Shown here one piece after another: positions 3,884 to 34,634 of a stretch of 64,000 nucleotides of DNA (position 1 is its first letter; the number at the start of each line of letters is the position of its first letter). A model generated the notes under the pieces. That model was not told the DNA's origin. It did no database searches and saw nothing but the letters and a program-made list of their open reading frames with translations. This stretch comes from a phage: assembly GCA_012813795.1 (NCBI GenBank), contig GCA_012813795.1_4087.1. One strand, given 5' to 3'. Position numbers and translations under genes: made by a program.

Positions 3884-3917
3884 ATATTTTATCCAATAAA
3901 TATTATAGGAGAAGTAT

Positions 3918-4406
3918 ATGAGTAAATGGGAAATTAAACCTGATGATGCACAGTATTTGAAAGAAATTAAAGAGTTTGAAGGTACTATTGCTTTCCAAAC
4001 TAAATTAGGTTATTTCAAGAATGGTAAATTCAGAGTTTATAAAGATAGCCTAGGACTAGATACCATTGGTTACGGTCACTTAGTACTAAAAGGTGAAAAT
4101 TTCAGTGCAGGGCTAACTGAAGCAGAAGCAGAAGCACTACTTCAAAAAGATTCCCTAAATGCATACAGAGAAGCTAACGAGATTTATGATCAATTCGGTA
4201 TGTCTGCACCAATTCAGGTACAACGTGTACTTTGGATGATGATATTCCAAATGGGTAAATCTCGTGTATTGAACTTTAAGAAAGCGATGGCAGCATTGGG
4301 TTGTGGTGATTATAAAACCGCTGGCAAAGAAATGCGTGATTCCGCTTGGTATCGTCAAACAACTTCTCGTGCTGAAAAAATGGCAAGGATTGTTGAATCC
4401 GTATAA
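3918..4406 (+). CDS. T4-type lysozyme (glycoside hydrolase family 24), free paralog of the spike C-terminal domain
   Basis: 162 aa; EFEG...YKDSLG...DTIGYGHL catalytic Glu/Asp/Thr pattern, MIFQMG and SAWYRQTTSRA motifs; RBS AGGAGA 5-10 nt upstream; clearly alignable to residues about 725-887 of the spike protein. Confidence 0.85.
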   Translation: MSKWEIKPDDAQYLKEIKEFEGTIAFQTKLGYFKNGKFRVYKDSLGLDTIGYGHLVLKGENFSAGLTEAEAEALLQKDSLNAYREANEIYDQFGMSAPIQVQRVLWMMIFQMGKSRVLNFKKAMAALGCGDYKTAGKEMRDSAWYRQTTSRAEKMARIVESV

Positions 4407-4419
4407 ATGAGGAAAGTCT

Positions 4420-4815
4420 ATGGCAATAGTTTTTAAAGGTTTCTCTACTCCTGTTGTGGGTAAAACACAAACTCTGTATGATGCTGAGTTGGTGAGACAG
4501 GATTTGATGAACCACTTCAATACAAAGAAAGGTGAAAGAGCATTTGATGCTGATTATGGTTTCATTGCTTGGGATTTGATTTTTGAACTTGATGGTTATA
4601 ATACAAAAAATCTTTTAGAAGCTGACGCTCGTAGAATTATTTCATTAGACCCACGTTTGAATTTAAAAAATCTAACAGTTAGTAATGTTGAATATGGTTA
4701 TCGTTTGGACATAATTTTAGAGTATGTAATGCTTGATAAATTAGAACAACTTACTATAGTATTCGATGCCAGAAGTAATAATAGGATGGCAACGTTTACA
4801 ACATCTAAATTATAA
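4420..4815 (+). CDS. baseplate wedge protein, gp25/GPW-like
   Basis: 131 aa; size and pattern (KGERAFDADYGF...DLIFE) resemble T4 gp25 / P2 W family as recalled; sits between spike-lysozyme and gp6-like genes as in other contractile tails. Confidence 0.65.
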   Translation: MAIVFKGFSTPVVGKTQTLYDAELVRQDLMNHFNTKKGERAFDADYGFIAWDLIFELDGYNTKNLLEADARRIISLDPRLNLKNLTVSNVEYGYRLDIILEYVMLDKLEQLTIVFDARSNNRMATFTTSKL

Positions 4816-4822
4816 TTTACTA

Positions 4823-4848
4823 AGCACTCTTCGGAGTGCTTTTCTTTT
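4823..4848 (+). terminator. rho-independent terminator
   Basis: Hairpin AGCACTC-TTCG-GAGTGCT followed by TTTTCTTTT. Confidence 0.7.
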
Positions 4849-4849
4849 G

Positions 4850-4857
4850 GATAAATA
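4850..4857 (+). promoter_or_regulatory. late-promoter-like box GATAAATA (T4-type TATAAATA-like)
   Basis: Directly after the terminator hairpin and about 55 nt upstream of the gp6-like gene; similar ATAAATA boxes recur upstream of most structural genes. Confidence 0.4.
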
Positions 4858-4914
4858 TTTCTATATAAAATTTCAGTACTGACCCAGTACTTTATTGGCT
4901 TAAAGGATTAATAA

Positions 4915-7900
4915 ATGTCACAACAAAAAAGACAATCTAATTTATACGCGGGGGAAGACTGGACCCAGGTATATGAAAGTTTCTATAAAATCAATCTGAC
5001 AGCTTATGACTTCGACACTATACGTCAAAGTATGATTGATTATTTGCGTCAAACATATCCTGATTCATTCAATGACTGGATTGAGAATGACCAGTTTATC
5101 TTCATTTTAGATACTATTGCAATGCTAGGACAAAACTTAGCGTTTCGTATGGATTTAAACACGCGTGAAAACTTCCTAGATACTGCTAGTCGTCGTGCAT
5201 CTGTGCTTAAATTAGCTAAAATGATCTCCTATTCACCTCGTCGTGCATATCCAGGGCGAGCAACAGCAAAACTAACTGAAATTAAAACGAACCAAGACGT
5301 TCGCAACAGCTATAACGAATCACTTAAAGATAAAATTATCCGTTGGAATGACCCAATGGACTCTAACTGGTATGAGAACTTTATTCTGGTAATGAATAGT
5401 GCATTTGTCAGTACTAACCAGTTTGGTAACCCAGTAAAACGTTTGGATATTAATGGTGTATCTCGTCATTTATATAGAATGAACACTTTACCTATGTCTG
5501 CACCTAATTTACCATTCACGGCTACTGTAAATGGTGAATCCATGACATTTGAGGTCGTAAACCCTGATATTAACGTTATTGGTGTTGATGAAAGACACCC
5601 TGAGCCACAAGAACAGAAATATATTGTGTATCAGAATGATGGTAATGGTTTTAGTTCACCTAATACCGGATTCTTTGTTTATTTTATTCAAGGAACATTG
5701 CAATATCAGGATTTCCAGTACGATGTTAGACAAGAAAACCGTATTCAGGATATTAACGTAGATAATATTAACGAAACTGACGTATGGGTACAGGAAATCA
5801 CAGAAGATGGCATAGTTCGCACTAAATGGACTAAGGTTCCATCAATGGAAAGTATTGCATATAACACAGTAACACGTCAACTTAAAACAATTTATGCTGT
5901 AACTACCCGTGACCGTGACCAAATCAGTATTAAGTTCCCTGATTCACGTAGTGGTGTTGTTCCGCGTGGAACATATCGTGTTTGGTATCGTGTAAGTAAT
6001 GGTGAAACATACAATATCAAAACTGCTGACATTCAAAACAAAAGTGTTAAGTACATTTACAGAACTAAATCACAATCTAACTATGAAAATAGTACATTAG
6101 ATATTAAATTTAGTTTACAATTTGAATCCGACCGTGCACAAAGTGCCGAAACCCTTGAACAAATAAAAGCTCGTGCACCACAAATGTATTATACTCAAAA
6201 CCGTTTTGTGAATGGTGAAGATTATAACATTGCACCATTGAGTCAAGGCAACGCAGTACTGAAATCTAAGGCGATTAACAGGATTTATAGTGGACAATCA
6301 AGATTTATTGATATAAATGACCCAACAGGTAAGTATCAGAACACCGATGTGTTTAGTGATGATGGTGCAATGTACAAAAATGTCACCAAATACAATAAAT
6401 CTGTAAATTTACCAAGTACTAAATCTAATTCTAGTATTGTTATTGATGATATTCAACCATTAATTGGTGAAAATGCTGTTATTCAGAAGTATCAAGCATA
6501 TCCACAGAATACAGTACGTGTTGAATTACAACAAAACTGGGTTCCATCATATAGTTCAAGCTATGCAACTAACACTTATGGTCGTATTGTTGGGGCAACT
6601 GGTACAATTTATGGTGATTATAAAGTTGGTACATTGATTAAATTTGGTAGTAGCTCAAATAATATCGTATGGGCTAGTATTGTTAATGTGTTACCAAACG
6701 GTTTTTATGTTCTAAGTACACCAATTTCTTCCTCAATGCAGATCCAAGAGTATATTAGTCCATATAGAACTCGTTTCAACACTGTTGAAGTTCAAAATAT
6801 AGCTGCAATGTTAGATAAGAAAACAAACTTCATTCTAATTTATGATATTGTATCCACTGCATGGGTTCCTTTGGAGATTACAACTACTAGTGATACTATA
6901 ACATACAATGGTTCGTTGGTGCAGGTGATGGTTAACATCCAATATACTGCTGAAACATGGGAATTTGATTCCAACGGTGTTGAATATGTCTTTGTTGGTG
7001 GTGAAAAAGTTCGTTTTTACTTTGTAAGCTCTAAGAAAATCACTGATATTAGTTCTGGTTCAGTGCAAAGTGATAAAATTGAGATTCTTTCATCGAACTC
7101 TACTAGTACTAGTAACGTAGGTCTAACCAATAACATTGATTTCCAGATTCTGGATACAATAAAACAAGAAAATGGTTATTTGGATGGTTCCAGAGTTGTA
7201 ATTACATCTGAAAGTATGGATAGTAATGGTATTCCATTAAATCCTAACCAATTTCAATCTATCGTCCCTGATTGGACTGGTGAAGATTCTAGAAAGTATG
7301 GTGGTATCTTGGTATTCCAACAAAATGAAGATTTCACTATTTCTTCATTGCCATTACCAAATTCATCCTTCACTATAATGGATTCAACATGGAATTATAC
7401 AATGGATCAGGCATTAGCTGAAACTAATGCGTATAAGAGACAGGAATTCATTCGTAATAATGAAATTCGTTCAACTACATTGAGTGAAGTATATAGTAAA
7501 GGTACGGGTTTTATTATTGCATTCCAATACGAAGGACAATATTACTTCATAGAACAAACCGTTGGTAATAACAATGACCGTTTGGGTGTTCTAATTCAGA
7601 ATATGACTGAAGTTACTGATCCAAGTGCTGCTACACCAGAAACTGCATTCTATCGTTGTATTAAAAACATGGGTACAAGTGTTGACACTAATAAAAAGCT
7701 TAATTATTATGGTTATAAGGATATTACATCTGAACTTACTATAAAAACTAATGCTAGAACGTCCATTAACTTTCACTGGAAACACTATGCACCAGATGAT
7801 AACCGAATCGACCCAAGCAGAACCAACTTAATTGATATGTATGTTTTAACAAACTCATATAAGACTGAAGTTGATATTTGGTTGAAGAATGGTGCTAAGG

Positions 7901-27687: not shown

Positions 27688-28056
27688 ATGGCAGTTTTTT
27701 CTAACTTTGAAGGGACAATTTTACACAAACAATCTGGGGGTAAATATGTAGTAACAGTAGCTGGTGCATTCGTAGGAAAATATGAACAGCTTAAAGCAGC
27801 AGTAGTTGGTGCTAAAACTATTAGAACACATAACACTGCATGGGGTACAAACCAATATGCTAAAGCAGCAGGTACAAGAATTGTAATTCCTGGTGCTGGT
27901 GAAAATGGAACTGATCTCCACACTCATATAACACGAGCTACATACGTGGTCAACTCGGTATTTTGCATTGATATAGCAGACGAAATAAAAACTGCTTTCC
28001 CTGATGAGACTCCATTGTTAGCCGAATCCCCAATTACATACATTACACTTCCATAA
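27688..28056 (+). CDS. hypothetical protein sharing an N-terminal decapeptide with the next gene
   Basis: 122 aa; begins MAVFSNFEGT, next gene begins MAVFSNLEGT; RBS AAGGGGGA. Confidence 0.5.
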   Translation: MAVFSNFEGTILHKQSGGKYVVTVAGAFVGKYEQLKAAVVGAKTIRTHNTAWGTNQYAKAAGTRIVIPGAGENGTDLHTHITRATYVVNSVFCIDIADEIKTAFPDETPLLAESPITYITLP

Positions 28057-29090: not shown

Positions 29091-32000
29091 ATGTACTCGA
29101 TAAAAACAGATCTAGCAGTAACTGGTAATACTAATGTTGGTAAAGAATTATCAGTTAAAGGTAATGCGGTCTTCGATAAAAACGTAACCATTAAGGGGAC
29201 CGTTAGTTTCGCTGATGCTACCTTCACTGCAATTACAGTAGATCAAGCAACAATCAACACAACACTCGATGTTACAGGCAAAGCGTCACTGAAGGGTGGA
29301 ATGGATGTACTTGGTAATACAGTTATTGGTAATACTACTGCTGGTTCCGATACAGCAACTATTAATTCCAATGCTACTTTTAATGGCACTTCTACTTTTG
29401 CCAAAGATATTACACAAACATCAGGAAAAGCAATTTTTCAAGATACCACCACTTCTGCATTAGAAGTTAATGGTACAACAACATTAAATGGTAACCTCAC
29501 TGCTGCGGCAGCAACCACTGCAAGCTTTGATAAATTAACAGCTAATGAAGCAACCATTGCAACTGTATCAGCAACTGATATTACTGCAACTGGTGCAACC
29601 GTTGAGAATCTAACTGTAACTGGTAAATTAGATGGTGATTTCACACTAGGTGATGTAAACACTGACAATTTAGTTGTTAATAAATTATCAACACTAAAAG
29701 GTGCAGTAACTCTAGAATCAAACATCATTGGTACTAATTCCGTAGCCAACCTTAAAGCTGTATCTTTAGGTTCTAACGCTGCGGATACAACTACCCGTGT
29801 TGGTTTTGCATATACAGCACCAGGTCTACGCCCAACTGTAATTCTACAAAACGAAGTGCAGTCCGAGTTAATGACCCCAGCAAATCTAACAGTACTTAAA
29901 ACTGCTACATTTGGTGATGTATCAGCAGCAACCAATGGTATTACCGCAAAAGGCTTGAACTTATTTGATTACCTAACTCTTTCTGGTAACTCAATTCAAG
30001 ATCCAAATACACCTATTCTACGTGTAACTAAAGGTAAAACACAATTAACTGACCTACAAGTTGATGGAACTACTAATATTACTGGTAAAACTACTGTTGG
30101 TGATTTGGATATTACTGGAACACTATCAGGTAACTTTGTACTAAGTGATATTACTGCGGATAATTTAGTTGTTGAAAAACTAACTACACTAAAAGGTGCA
30201 TTAAACCTAGAATCTAATATTGTTGGTTCAACTGCGAATGCTAATTTAAAATCTGTCACTTTAGGTGGAAACGTAGCAGACACGAATGCTAAAGTTAACT
30301 TTACATATACTGCTCCTGGTTTACGTCCAACTGTAATTCTACAAAACGAAGTACAGTCCGAATTAATGACCCCAGCAAATCTAACAGTACTTAAAACTGC
30401 TACATTTGGTGATGTATCTGCATCTACCTACGGTATTACAGCAAAAGGTTTGAACCTATTTGATTATTTGAAAATAACTGGTAATGCGGTACAAGATCCG
30501 AATACCTTAACTCTCGATGTTGGTGGTAAAGCACAATTCAAAGACGTTAATTTCACTGGTACAGTTACTGGTTTTGTTCCAGACATTTCTGGTCAAGATA
30601 TTACACCTAAAGATGTTATTGCTTCTGGTAATATTAGTGGTGTTAATCTAGATGCTTCTGGTACACTAACAGTTGGTGGGGATTCCGTTCTAAAAGGCAC
30701 AACTATAACTGATTTGACTGTTACTGGAACTACAACTGGTATTACACTAGCTGGTCAAGACATTACTCCTAAAGATGTAACTGCATCTGGTAATGTTAAA
30801 GGTGTTGACGTAACTGCATCTGGAAACCTAAAAGTTAACGGTACTACCACATTGGCTGGTAACACGGTAGTTGATGGTTTATTTGAAGTTGTTGGTCAAA
30901 CAACCACTGTTAAAGATTTAAACGTTACTGGTACACTATCTGGTGCTGCAATTAAAGCAAACGTTGATGGTCTAGACATTCTACCTAATTCTGTAACCAC
31001 AACTGAAGAAGTTGCAGTGGGGACTAATCTAAGTGTTGGTGGAAACGCACTCTTTAGTGGCTTGAAAGTTGAAGTTACTGGTAAAGTTACTGGTGTTGGT
31101 TCTGATGCATTAGAAACTGGTTCAATTGAATCTGACGGTACTATCACTGCCCCAAATATCACAGCAACTACTAAAGTGACCGCAGCTTCCGCACAAATTA
31201 CCGGAACCGGAACTGGTCTAAGTGTAGATCATAATGCATCAGTTGGTGGTGATTTGAATGTTACTGGAACTTTAACTGCTGGCGTTATTGACCTACACGA
31301 TGCAGAAGTAACTGTTAAAAAACTTAATGTATCTGAAAGTGCACATGTTGGTGGTGACCTAACAGTTGACGGTACAGTTGACCTAAGTGCAGCTATTGTA
31401 ACTGTTAAATCTCTAACTAGTACTGGTCCAGTAATTAGTAAGGATACTACTGGAACTAACATTTTACCAAAATTACAAAGTACTGATATTACTACAACTA
31501 ACAGTACAACTGGTACAGCAACAGTAACTACAGCAAATATTTCTACATTAAATGTTACTGGTGAAAGTACATTGGCTGCTGTTTCTGCTGTTTCTGTTAC
31601 CACTCCTACTATTGTGAATACCGATGGTATTAATTTAGAAAATGACACAATTGCACATGGTAACCTAACTGTTAAAGGTACATTTACCCCTGAAGGTGGA
31701 TTAGATTTAAGCCCAGTTGATATCAGTTCTAAATCATTAACAACAACTGAAGGTGCAACCATTGGTGGAAGCTTAACTGTTGATGGTGCAATTAATGCTG
31801 CTGCGGCAGATCTAACTGTTAAATCACTAACATCTTCTGGTGTTATCACTGTTACTGAAAATACTGAACCAAGTATTCTACCAAAACTAACAAGTACTGA
31901 AGCAACCGCTGGTAAATTGAATGTTACTGGTGATGCAACAGTCGGTGGTAAAGCGACCGTTTCTGGTGCACTTGAAGTTACTGGTGCTTCAACATTTGGT

Positions 32001-34634
32001 AACGCAGTAACTGTAAACGTCGGTGGTATTACTGCTAAAGGTGGCTTGACTGTTGCTTCTGGAAACTTGAAAGTTGCTGCTGCGGCAGTGGTTGATGGTT
32101 CAGTAAGTGCTGGTTCATACACAAGTGCTGGAGATAAAATAACACTAGCTAAACCAACAGATGTTACTGGTGATTTGCACGTTGAAGGTGCTTTCACTGC
32201 AACTTCCGTTGATTTTAGTGATACTAATTTGACTGTTAAATCACTACAAGTTAATAATGACGTTACTATTGATGGTAACTTAACTATCAAAAATGCTGAG
32301 TTGGAAACTAACACATTAGCAAGTACTACAAGTACTACTGTTGGTACTGACCTAATTCTAACTACTGGTACAATTACTGGTGCTCCAATAATTTCTGGTG
32401 CTACTACACTAAGTTCAACACTACATACAGTGGGTGCTGCAACTTTTGATAGTACTGTTGATGTTGGTGGTAAAATTACTTCTAAATCAATCCAAGTAAG
32501 TGATACTGGTGTTGGTGTAGCTGTTGATAATGATGCAACTGTTGGTGGTTATTTGACAATTGGTGAAACATTAGGTGTTACTGGGTTAAGTACTCTATCT
32601 GGTGGGGTTGATGCAGGTTCTGCATTAATTAAAACTACTGGTGAAGTTCAATCCGCAACTCTTCAAACTTCTGGTAAAGCAACACTAGCAAGTGTTGATG
32701 TTTCAGGTGATGCAGTTGTTACTGGTGACCTAACTGTTAAAGGTGCATTTACACCTGAAGGTAGCCTAAACATAGGTTCTGCTGTTCTAAACGTTGAAGG
32801 TATTGATGCAAGTGCTAACTTAACTGCACTCGGTTCTGTAACTGCTGGTACTACACTAACTGTTACTGGTGTTTCAACTCTAAATGGTGGTACTAACACT
32901 ACTACTCTTTCAACAAGTGGTAAAGCTACATTAAGTAGTGCGGAAGTTACTGGTGCTCTAAGTGCTGGTGGTGCTTTAACTGTTACTGGCACTACAAATC
33001 TAACTGGAAAACTAACCGCTGGTGAAGCTGCTCTCAGTTCACTAACAGTTTCTGGTGATGTTACCATTAATGGAACACTAAACCCTGGAACATTGGATCT
33101 ATCTACTACTCCAGTTGATGCGAAAAGCTTGAAATCCAGAGAAACACTAGAAGTTACTGGCCTAAGCACACTAACTGGTGGTTTGGCTGTTAGTGCAAAT
33201 GCCGCAATCACTGCTGCTGGTGACATTACAGGTACGACAATTACCACAACTGGTAAAGGTACATTTGGTAGTGCAGAAGTAACTACTGGTTTGACTGTTG
33301 GTGGTGCTTTGGTTGTTAATGGTGCATCCGTGAACATCTCTGATGCTTCTACTGTGACTATGCCTAAAGCTGATATTTCTGCGAAAGGTATTATCATCGG
33401 TACTAAAGTTAGTTCAAGATCGGAAACTATCCAATTTGTTGGTGATACTTATATTGGTAATGACCTATTTGTTGCTGGTAATATTAACGGTTCAGTAGAT
33501 TTGGATGGTCAGGATATTTCCCTGAACTCATTAACTTCTAATACCACAATTCACGCAGTTGAGGATATTACTACTGATGAAGATATGCACGCACGTGCTG
33601 CAACATTCGGTGCAAAAGGTTCAACATCTAACAGCCTAACTGTTAATGGTAACGCAGTAACTACTGGCGACTTTACGGTTACTGGTAAGATTATTGGTAC
33701 ACTGGACCAATCTGCAAGTGCAGTCGAAGTTAAATCTCTAACTTCTACAACCTTTATCGCTGCTAACACAACCCTTACCGTTGGTTCAACAATCACTGCT
33801 GAAGGTTTGAGTACATTGAAAGGTGGTATTGTAACTAATGGTGCTACAATCAACGCTGGTGCTGGTGCTATCACCACAACTGGTGATGTTTCTGGTGCAA
33901 ACGTTAATGTATCTGGTGCAGTATCAACTGCAACTATTACAACTTCTGGCCTAGCAACTATGGCAAGTGCTAAGATTAACACTACTCTAGCAGTTACTGG
34001 TGCAACTACACTATCTGATGTTGTTACTATCGGTAAGAAACTAACTGTTAGTACTGGTGGTATCGAAATCACTGCGGGTGGCTTCAATGTAGTTGCGGGT
34101 GGTGCAGCAATTACTGGTGCTACTAACCTTAAAGGTGCTGTAACACTAGGTTCTGCGTCTGCTGATGCAATCACAGTTACTGGTACATCTTCATTTGCTG
34201 AAAATGCAACATTTGCTAAAGATGTAACTATTGAAGGTACACTACATACTGATATTGCTGATTTAGTAACTGAAAGTGTAACTACTAAAAAGTATGCTGT
34301 TACACCTGCTGCTAAAGTTACTGCTTCTGGTGTGGCTCCGTCTGAAGGGACATGGACACCTGATGGTCAATCAAATGTGTATTATATCACACTTGACCAA
34401 GCAACAACTACTCTTGGTCCAATTAACGGATTGATTGGAAGTGGGAAGGCTGGTTCTTACTATATCTACGTACAACAAGATGCAACTGGTGGACGTGAAT
34501 TTACCACTGATGGTACTTATGCAGTAGTAGGTGGTGAGATTAATAAAACACAAAATACAGTTAGTATCATTCAGTTGATTTATGATGGATACAGCCCAGT
34601 AGTAGATATGTTTATAGCTCAACGTACTGCTTAA
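29091..34634 (+). CDS. long tail fiber-like protein, highly repetitive (1847 aa)
   Basis: T/G/A/V/L-rich fibrous composition with recurring TVTG / LTV / TGxT motifs; internal tandem duplication of about 165 aa; RBS GGAGGG; AATAAATA box at 29025-29032. Confidence 0.7.
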   Translation: MYSIKTDLAVTGNTNVGKELSVKGNAVFDKNVTIKGTVSFADATFTAITVDQATINTTLDVTGKASLKGGMDVLGNTVIGNTTAGSDTATINSNATFNGTSTFAKDITQTSGKAIFQDTTTSALEVNGTTTLNGNLTAAAATTASFDKLTANEATIATVSATDITATGATVENLTVTGKLDGDFTLGDVNTDNLVVNKLSTLKGAVTLESNIIGTNSVANLKAVSLGSNAADTTTRVGFAYTAPGLRPTVILQNEVQSELMTPANLTVLKTATFGDVSAATNGITAKGLNLFDYLTLSGNSIQDPNTPILRVTKGKTQLTDLQVDGTTNITGKTTVGDLDITGTLSGNFVLSDITADNLVVEKLTTLKGALNLESNIVGSTANANLKSVTLGGNVADTNAKVNFTYTAPGLRPTVILQNEVQSELMTPANLTVLKTATFGDVSASTYGITAKGLNLFDYLKITGNAVQDPNTLTLDVGGKAQFKDVNFTGTVTGFVPDISGQDITPKDVIASGNISGVNLDASGTLTVGGDSVLKGTTITDLTVTGTTTGITLAGQDITPKDVTASGNVKGVDVTASGNLKVNGTTTLAGNTVVDGLFEVVGQTTTVKDLNVTGTLSGAAIKANVDGLDILPNSVTTTEEVAVGTNLSVGGNALFSGLKVEVTGKVTGVGSDALETGSIESDGTITAPNITATTKVTAASAQITGTGTGLSVDHNASVGGDLNVTGTLTAGVIDLHDAEVTVKKLNVSESAHVGGDLTVDGTVDLSAAIVTVKSLTSTGPVISKDTTGTNILPKLQSTDITTTNSTTGTATVTTANISTLNVTGESTLAAVSAVSVTTPTIVNTDGINLENDTIAHGNLTVKGTFTPEGGLDLSPVDISSKSLTTTEGATIGGSLTVDGAINAAAADLTVKSLTSSGVITVTENTEPSILPKLTSTEATAGKLNVTGDATVGGKATVSGALEVTGASTFGNAVTVNVGGITAKGGLTVASGNLKVAAAAVVDGSVSAGSYTSAGDKITLAKPTDVTGDLHVEGAFTATSVDFSDTNLTVKSLQVNNDVTIDGNLTIKNAELETNTLASTTSTTVGTDLILTTGTITGAPIISGATTLSSTLHTVGAATFDSTVDVGGKITSKSIQVSDTGVGVAVDNDATVGGYLTIGETLGVTGLSTLSGGVDAGSALIKTTGEVQSATLQTSGKATLASVDVSGDAVVTGDLTVKGAFTPEGSLNIGSAVLNVEGIDASANLTALGSVTAGTTLTVTGVSTLNGGTNTTTLSTSGKATLSSAEVTGALSAGGALTVTGTTNLTGKLTAGEAALSSLTVSGDVTINGTLNPGTLDLSTTPVDAKSLKSRETLEVTGLSTLTGGLAVSANAAITAAGDITGTTITTTGKGTFGSAEVTTGLTVGGALVVNGASVNISDASTVTMPKADISAKGIIIGTKVSSRSETIQFVGDTYIGNDLFVAGNINGSVDLDGQDISLNSLTSNTTIHAVEDITTDEDMHARAATFGAKGSTSNSLTVNGNAVTTGDFTVTGKIIGTLDQSASAVEVKSLTSTTFIAANTTLTVGSTITAEGLSTLKGGIVTNGATINAGAGAITTTGDVSGANVNVSGAVSTATITTSGLATMASAKINTTLAVTGATTLSDVVTIGKKLTVSTGGIEITAGGFNVVAGGAAITGATNLKGAVTLGSASADAITVTGTSSFAENATFAKDVTIEGTLHTDIADLVTESVTTKKYAVTPAAKVTASGVAPSEGTWTPDGQSNVYYITLDQATTTLGPINGLIGSGKAGSYYIYVQQDATGGREFTTDGTYAVVGGEINKTQNTVSIIQLIYDGYSPVVDMFIAQRTA
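29622..30525 (+). repeat. intragenic tandem duplication (period 495 bp, about 165 aa) inside the long fiber gene
   Basis: Protein segments GKLDGDF...QDPNT and GTLSGNF...QDPNT are collinear; a core of about 95 nt (29832-29926 vs 30327-30421) is identical except for two substitutions, while the flanks are clearly more divergent. Confidence 0.85.

Follow-up and report, generated by a model that had tools for sequence, protein, structure and literature searches.

A tandem repeat with a short homogenised core in the long tail-fibre gene of an Asteriusvirus jumbo phage: gene conversion within one lineage as the best explanation

Tail fibres decide which bacteria a phage attacks, and the jumbo phages of the genus Asteriusvirus are under characterisation for therapy. 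The long tail-fibre gene of one such Escherichia phage lies on a stretch of 64,000 nucleotides (nt) of DNA (GenBank assembly GCA_012813795.1, contig GCA_012813795.1_4087.1; hereafter, the window). It contains two consecutive copies of a unit of 165 amino acids (aa) that are clearly diverged over most of their length but nearly identical over a core of 92 nt. How can two copies of a repeat have drifted apart almost everywhere, and yet remain the same in one short tract? The best explanation, to which we assign a probability of about 80%, is a short-tract gene conversion between the units that took place before the window phage diverged from its relatives, Escherichia phage A4 and a metagenome-assembled genome (MAG, GCA_025677605.1), and that lies atop an older history of concerted evolution.

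The geometry of the repeat is simple. A repeat search reports a two-copy direct repeat with a spacing of 495 nt (29598-29897 versus 30093-30392, 73% identity), and an ungapped identity profile at this offset stays above background from approximately 29600 to 30020, with a peak of 0.93-1.00 at 29826-29915. Compared codon by codon, the units are collinear and in frame, and their products (aa 170-334 versus aa 335-494) are 68% identical by BLASTP (E = 7 × 10−68). A tblastn search of the window with the unit finds no further copies beyond these two. The limits of the core are set by mismatches at 29831 and 29924, and its copies span aa 248-278 and 413-443 of the 1847 residues of the fibre protein. 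Only 2 of the 92 core positions differ (29858 and 29867, G in unit 1 and A in unit 2), both of them synonymously. When up to three mismatches are allowed, a search for the core returns exactly these two sites in the window and none in 100 shuffles. The longest run of perfect identity between the units (Table 1) is a potential substrate for more unequal exchange. Each module carries a conserved, non-repetitive core motif, YTAPGxRPTVILQNE.QSELM.P..L.V.K.A.FG...YGIT..GLN..DYL, set in variable T/G/V/N-rich sequence. The original prediction for this locus, made from the letters of the DNA, had described a 495-bp tandem duplication of two collinear 165-aa units and a core identical bar two substitutions, and the repeat search, the offset profile and the codon alignment all bear this out. 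It had placed the repeat at 29622-30525 and the core length at about 95 nt, which is essentially right if slightly off, as the units occupy 29598-30587 and the core measures 92 nt. Two antisense open reading frames (ORFs) overlap the units (29438-29935 and 29996-30283, both on the minus strand, 165 and 95 aa); they are not equivalent between the units and most likely arise as a side effect of the codon composition of this gene.

The divergence of the two units is strongly uneven. Counting all positions, 2 of 92 differ in the core, versus 109 of 334 in the rest of the repeat (Fisher p = 2 × 10−11), and the imbalance is also present at third codon positions (2/30 in the core, 53/112 outside, p = 1.8 × 10−5). 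Among codons that specify the same amino acid in both units, 27 of 29 are identical in the core versus 44 of 77 outside (Fisher p = 3.7 × 10−4); to the left of the core the count is 24 of 41. Flanking synonymous sites are near saturation. A permutation scan of the same-amino-acid codons, in which the position of the tract was not pre-selected, likewise yields p = 0.0044. The original prediction held that the flanks are clearly more divergent than the core, and named uniform divergence on precise alignment as the outcome that would speak against it; the unevenness exceeds chance in the Fisher tests and in the scan, and core and flanks differ sharply. A conserved tract might also arise without any recombination, from purifying selection on the protein combined with codon preference, and in every phage, for unit 1 and unit 2 alike, no protein segment of the unit is better conserved than the core. 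Selection on the protein, however, leaves synonymous sites free. The seven codons directly to the left of the core, YTAPGLR, encode the same amino acids in both units, and five of the seven differ synonymously. Because these equally conserved codons differ while those of the core match, the unevenness is greater than protein constraint would account for.

Table 1. Features of the long tail-fibre gene and its tandem units (positions are those of the window).
Feature	Position	Strand	Description
Repeat unit 1	29598..30092	+	aa 170-334, 165 aa
Repeat unit 2	30093..30587	+	aa 335-499; no detectable similarity to unit 1 beyond about aa 494
Core copy 1	29832..29923	+	92-nt homogenised tract, encodes PTVILQNEVQSELMTPANLTVLKTATFGDV(S)
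Core copy 2	30327..30418	+	versus copy 1: A for G at 30353 and 30362 only, both synonymous
Longest perfect identity run between units	29868..29923 (partner 30363-30418)	+	56 nt
'Mid' segment (SAATNGITAKGLNLF)	29924..29968	+	82% nt identity to 30419-30463
Mosaic patch in unit 1	29646..29826	+	~14% diverged from A4 and MAG; right edge abuts core
Long tail-fibre gene	29091..34634	+	5544-nt ORF, 1847 aa, T/G/V/N-rich repetitive shaft protein

Comparison with homologous fibres, which the original prediction had proposed as a check, shows where the homogenisation of the core is found. The nt identity between the cores of units 1 and 2 reaches 0.98 for the window and 0.94 for A4, as against 0.79 in JNE01, 0.76 in both BF17 and ph0011, 0.70 in both UB and PBECO4, and 0.67 in 121Q. 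The cores of these six other phages are 67-87% identical at the protein level, yet just 9-16 of their 20-25 same-amino-acid codons are identical. By the scan, identical codons cluster significantly in the window (p = 0.0044) and at the border of significance in A4 (p = 0.049), and none of the six others reaches significance. The same amino acids have thus been kept elsewhere with different codons, and selection on the protein with codon preference is a very unlikely source of the pattern. The two-unit arrangement itself is genus-wide, and the homogenisation of the core is limited to the window, A4 and the MAG.

The same comparison bears on the idea that the 92 nt are a functional element at the nucleotide level, such as an RNA structure, an internal promoter or terminator, or a regulatory site, that is kept twice. 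The folding energy of the cores is weakly below average (z = −1.5 and −2.3), which is the sort of signal that an RNA structure might leave, although z-scores of this size are unremarkable. The core has no match in Rfam, and a scan of it for promoter-like or terminator-like sites found none. A functional element would moreover require its nt sequence to be conserved, and the two units of other Asteriusviruses have not conserved the core sequence. On these grounds the element was rejected as a candidate, and we regard it as highly improbable.

The homogenised core sits within a much older repeat. Each of the 13 Asteriusvirus genes inspected has both units at the same position, among them those of A4, the MAG (L017), JNE01, UB, BF17, PBECO4, 121Q, ph0011 and CMSTMSU, with a period of 165 aa in the window lineage versus 170 aa in the other orthologues of the genus. 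A tblastn search with a two-unit query covers both units in one place in 58 records. Among these are distant jumbo phages of Salmonella, Klebsiella, Erwinia, Serratia, Pectobacterium, Cronobacter and Yersinia, at 29-35% identity, in which two or three unit-like modules are discernible. The right flank of unit 1 in the window has eight diagnostic sites of the unit 1 type versus four of the unit 2 type, and that of unit 2 has twelve of the unit 2 type versus two of the unit 1 type. Window unit 2 also has a one-residue gap that is common to every other unit 2. From these diagnostic sites and the shared gap it follows that each window unit has its own orthologues. The duplication is therefore ancient and genus-wide, predating the diversification of the genus, and only the core is young. 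A search for homologous proteins for a deeper alignment gave five matches for the two-unit query and none for the core alone. In CMSTMSU (L008, an UNVERIFIED_ORG record), the orthologous fibre gene is broken into several coding sequences labelled 'flagellar hook-length control protein FliK'; it is probably frameshifted or misassembled, as well as misannotated, and EJP2 carries the same FliK label. Several Asteriusviruses show three 'places' in the tblastn search with the unit query, and some genomes may thus have additional fibre genes with such units.

When did the cores become alike? The six cores of the window, A4 and the MAG differ pairwise at 0-5 of 92 positions, and a single site, 29867, is both fixed and paralogue-specific. 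Conversion therefore most plausibly predates the split of these three genomes, and its age would be about that of the roughly 3.5% divergence between the window and A4. The three genomes also bear on the quality of the assemblies. Short-read assemblies of such repeats are open to mis-polishing, in which reads of one unit correct the other. Here, the window, A4 (ON286972, Ireland) and the MAG are three independent assemblies that share the two-unit structure and the near-identical cores, each with private substitutions, and the flanks stay well differentiated. An artefact of assembly, which the original prediction had listed as a possible refutation, is excluded by this shared architecture to the point of being extremely improbable. 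The cores might further be read as the template repeat and the variable repeat of a diversity-generating retroelement, as they are two near-identical repeats of about 90 nt whose only differences in the window are A in unit 2 versus G in unit 1. However, the repeats lie, both in frame, within the N-terminal third of the shaft and not at a C-terminal ligand-binding tip; just 2 of many adenines differ; C/T and T/G are found among the differences in A4 and the MAG; and the core sequences are stable across the three genomes and not hypervariable. A retroelement target was rejected on the position of the repeats and the pattern of substitutions, and this reading deserves next to no weight.

The core does not seem to be the first part of the repeat to have been homogenised. 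At 12 aa positions, both window units share a state unlike that shared by both units in at least five of the six other phages, versus four positions of the orthology type. Seven of the 12 sit in the core and the following 45 nt, where nt identity now stands at 82%. This following stretch, the 'mid' segment, contains several residues that are common to both window units and absent from the other phages. Together, the 'mid' segment and the 12 shared positions would represent an older layer of homogenisation, consistent with concerted evolution over a longer term.

Some relatives carry what look like the crossover counterparts of such an exchange. The fibre genes of JP4 and CRJP21, which are 99.6% identical to each other, measure 6390 nt, or a UB-like gene plus exactly 510 nt, and BLAST gives two overlapping alignments at a 510-nt offset. 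They contain three units, the middle one of which is nearly identical to unit 2 until alignment nt ~309 and to unit 1 from ~314. In the window this junction maps to approximately 29907-29912, within the core region. Such a middle unit is the product expected of an unequal crossover between unit 2 and unit 1, judging from its sequence. A metagenome scaffold (L018, protein P0006, 2120 aa) also has three units, with a middle unit that is unit 2-like for about the first 50 nt, then unit 1-like, and that is 84% identical to the scaffold's own unit 1. The different junction and the 84% identity indicate an older event, independent of that in JP4 and CRJP21. The original prediction that slipped or unequal recombination could vary the length of the fibre thus finds support in natural three-unit relatives. 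UB/JP4-type fibres have, further downstream, a tandem repeat of ~410 nt at a 336-nt offset with ~90% identity (JP4 gene nt 4427-5172, L016; UB gene nt 3917-4662, L003), which is not seen at ~90% identity in the window.

Exchange between phages also appears to have touched this gene. The first part of unit 1 in the window carries a mosaic patch (Table 1), surrounded by a gene and followed by a unit 2 that are 99-100% identical to A4 and the MAG; over the first 234 nt, unit 1 has 34 and 32 differences from A4 and the MAG, respectively, and unit 2 has 0-1. It appears from these breakpoints that the conserved core is a recurrent exchange point, between units as well as between phages. Could both cores then have gained the same sequence from other phages, with the conserved core serving as the crossover point for exchange between genomes? 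In favour of this, the fibre gene is mosaic between close relatives, with the patch ending at the core and two further divergent segments at 31251-31430 and 34311-34634. It would nevertheless take two separate imports of the same 92 nt where one intragenic event suffices, and megablast found no outside donor of the core sequence, the best outside matches being 77-85% identical. Out-of-register pairing between co-infecting sister genomes would, for its part, be mechanistically the same process as conversion between the units. Separate imports are, on balance, unlikely. Of the two further segments, that at 31251-31430 (plus strand) is 81-88% identical to A4 and the MAG and lies in short internal repeats of family D12, of the type (I/V)DLSAA.VTVKSL, two adjacent copies of which are more alike in A4 and the MAG than in the window; this may be a trace of additional conversion, on a small scale, between repeats of the shaft. 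The last ~320 nt of the gene (34311-34634, plus strand) are 69-74% identical to A4, with 34311-34400 79% identical to the MAG, while the rest is mostly 96-100% identical. This 3' end has the look of an exchanged C-terminal tip, and of all parts of the fibre it is the tip that would most likely touch the receptor or a distal partner.

How, then, might the core have been homogenised? In the mechanism we propose, a shaft module of ~165 aa would have been duplicated in tandem and in frame long before the genus diversified. The two cores, which can pair with each other because they stay similar, would then have paired out of register during replication or recombination. In a non-crossover outcome, a conversion tract of at most 92 nt (29832-29923 with 30327-30418) would have overwritten one core and erased its synonymous differences, after which one fixed and a few private substitutions would have arisen. 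Older conversions, by now partly decayed, may have left the lineage-specific residues that both window units have in common. The same pairing, if resolved by unequal crossover or template switching, would change the number of units by one in either direction and in frame, as has happened at least twice in the relatives with three units. We infer a molecular route through recombination or template switching, and likewise an effect of unit number on the length and function of the fibre.

As the synonymous sites are homogenised only in the core, and only in the window, A4 and the MAG, gene conversion between the units is the best supported reading. The tract includes synonymous sites, its boundaries are sharp, the duplication is older than the lineage, and sister lineages lack the homogenisation. 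With respect to unequal crossover, related genomes differ by whole in-frame units and have a chimeric junction unit. The notion that the pattern stems from gene conversion or slipped recombination inside the fibre gene, as originally predicted, is supported by both the lineage-specific synonymous homogenisation and the chimeric units. Several points nevertheless weigh against this reading or narrow it. The tract is short, and the core statistics rest on about 30 codons. The lineage consists of three genomes, and the evidence for exchange is drawn from assembled sequences and not from reads of one population. Site 29867, fixed and paralogue-specific, lies inside the tract, as either a substitution after conversion or a sign of a discontinuous tract. 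With respect to the direction of conversion, from donor to acceptor, the five diagnostic sites favour neither unit, as they split into two of the unit 1 type, two of the unit 2 type and one other. The window core is by mean identity more unit 1-like (0.79 versus 0.72-0.73), and a direction from unit 1 to unit 2 that had been proposed from these means was withdrawn after the diagnostic sites split. With regard to structure, a single-sequence AlphaFold2 monomer model of the two-unit segment is all-beta with a mean predicted local distance difference test (pLDDT) score of 41 and about 30 over the cores, and is unusable; in the homologous fibre of phage phiTE, only residues 14-171 have been modelled, upstream of the region that aligns to the units.

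The gene itself belongs to an Escherichia jumbo phage of the genus Asteriusvirus. Its closest relative by megablast, and the only close match, is phage A4 (ON286972, Asteriusvirus, 355 kb), in which the counterpart A4_569 is 95.4% identical over the whole gene span. A4_569 is labelled 'long tail fiber proximal subunit', but this label is the depositors' annotation, and the gene is not filed here as T4 gp34. The fibre protein matches phrog_4549 'tail fiber protein' (E = 1.4 × 10−179), the proteins of adjoining genes match virion-structural PHROGs, and the locus is syntenic with annotated structural proteins in A4, UB and JNE01. The phiTE tail-fibre chain 9cuy_g is homologous (E = 4 × 10−26), with aa 353-610 of the window protein aligned to chain residues 183-437. 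A Pfam scan of the fibre protein returned no family at E ≤ 0.1, although PF26209 Phage_phiTE_241_C is recorded for the orthologue in the MAG. In phAPEC6, gp256 (180 kDa) occupies the equivalent position, a few genes ahead of the thymidylate synthase gp259c, and has been detected in virions by mass spectrometry (PMC7247149); according to its database record note, the fENko-Kae01 counterpart was also detected by mass spectrometry. By profile and sequence match, as well as by conserved position, the product is predicted to be a long tail fibre of the phrog_4549 type, similar to that of phiTE.

What the units do in the fibre can be approached by analogy. The phiTE fibre is a trimer, for whose unmodelled part an extended beta-helix that includes flexible regions is predicted (PMC11972413). 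Because of this prediction, the unit is probably a shaft module, and an extra unit would probably lengthen the fibre. A bolder and rather doubtful suggestion is that each unit's core serves as a node of the trimeric shaft structure, for example as a hinge, as a knot or as the place where accessory fibres or tailspikes dock, and that these jumbo phages tune the length of the fibre or the number of nodes (two or three) by recombination at the core, with consequences for adsorption and host range, while conversion would keep the nodes interchangeable.

A literature search turned up no paper that describes the duplication or the conversion in fibres of Asteriusvirus. That phage fibre genes recombine internally, contain duplications and are mosaic is already well known, and the locus is a new example and no new mechanism. 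In gene 37 of phage T4, short conserved fibre motifs reportedly mediate homologous exchange that results in in-frame duplications and mosaic genes, according to work attributed to Tetart and colleagues in 1996. The duplicated segment there is said to lie in the C-terminal adhesin region, and an expansion of host range is said to have been shown experimentally. In contrast, the units described here lie in the N-terminal third of the shaft, their duplication is ancient, and the recent event would be a non-crossover conversion. Concerted evolution of tandem repeats is known in bacterial surface proteins and multigene families. The fibre locus resembles these cases in that paralogues are more alike than orthologues in defined tracts with sharp boundaries, and in that conversion would operate alongside unequal crossover. 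It differs from them in that it has only two units, a tract of at most 92 nt and a structural gene of a virus as its setting. In the Enterococcus phage EfV12-phi1, 1.8-kb in-frame tandem duplications arose repeatedly in the long tail-fibre gene during experimental coevolution, together with increased infectivity (PMC6365445). In both systems, a segment of the shaft that lies upstream of the receptor-binding part is repeated in tandem and in frame, and the number of copies differs between related phages. However, the EfV12-phi1 copies are new and identical, having arisen within days under selection, whereas those studied here are old and diverged (65% nt identity in the flanks), with variation between natural isolates (two versus three units) and not within a population. 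The phiTE long tail fibre (PDB 9CUY/9MJN; PMC11972413) is a sequence homologue over the region containing the units, and a trimeric fibre; it has 793 aa, of which residues 14-171 were modelled experimentally, versus 1847 aa here.

The locus is a clean natural example of a fibre gene remodelled from within. A conserved motif in a repeated module may act as the site of recombination with three kinds of outcome: silent homogenisation in the window phage, exchange of a neighbouring segment in the mosaic patch, and gain of a module in JP4/CRJP21 and the metagenome scaffold. If so, lysates are predicted to contain a 495-bp ladder of copy-number variants, and the in-frame junction would be a natural site for engineering fibres of different length.

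Further repeats and changes are found along the gene and in its neighbourhood. Degenerate shaft repeats of the families D8/D16 occupy 32639-33969 (plus strand), with copies at 32639, 32885, 33218 and 33913, identities of 61-74% and spacings of 246, 333 and 696 nt; it follows from these families that the whole fibre is built of reiterated modules. In JNE01 (L002, 10303-12113), the fibre gene is immediately followed by another very long gene, of 6363 nt, where the window, A4 and UB have a structural gene of 258-262 aa. Upstream, a 122-aa ORF at 27688-28056 (plus strand) is a remnant of A4_571, a 723-aa 'colanic acid-degrading protein'. Through an in-frame deletion of 1803 nt, codon 10 has been fused to the final 112 codons, with an imperfect microhomology of 10 nt (AAGGGACAAT / AAGGAACAAT) at the junction, and the window phage apparently no longer has the putative depolymerase or tailspike still present in A4 and UB.

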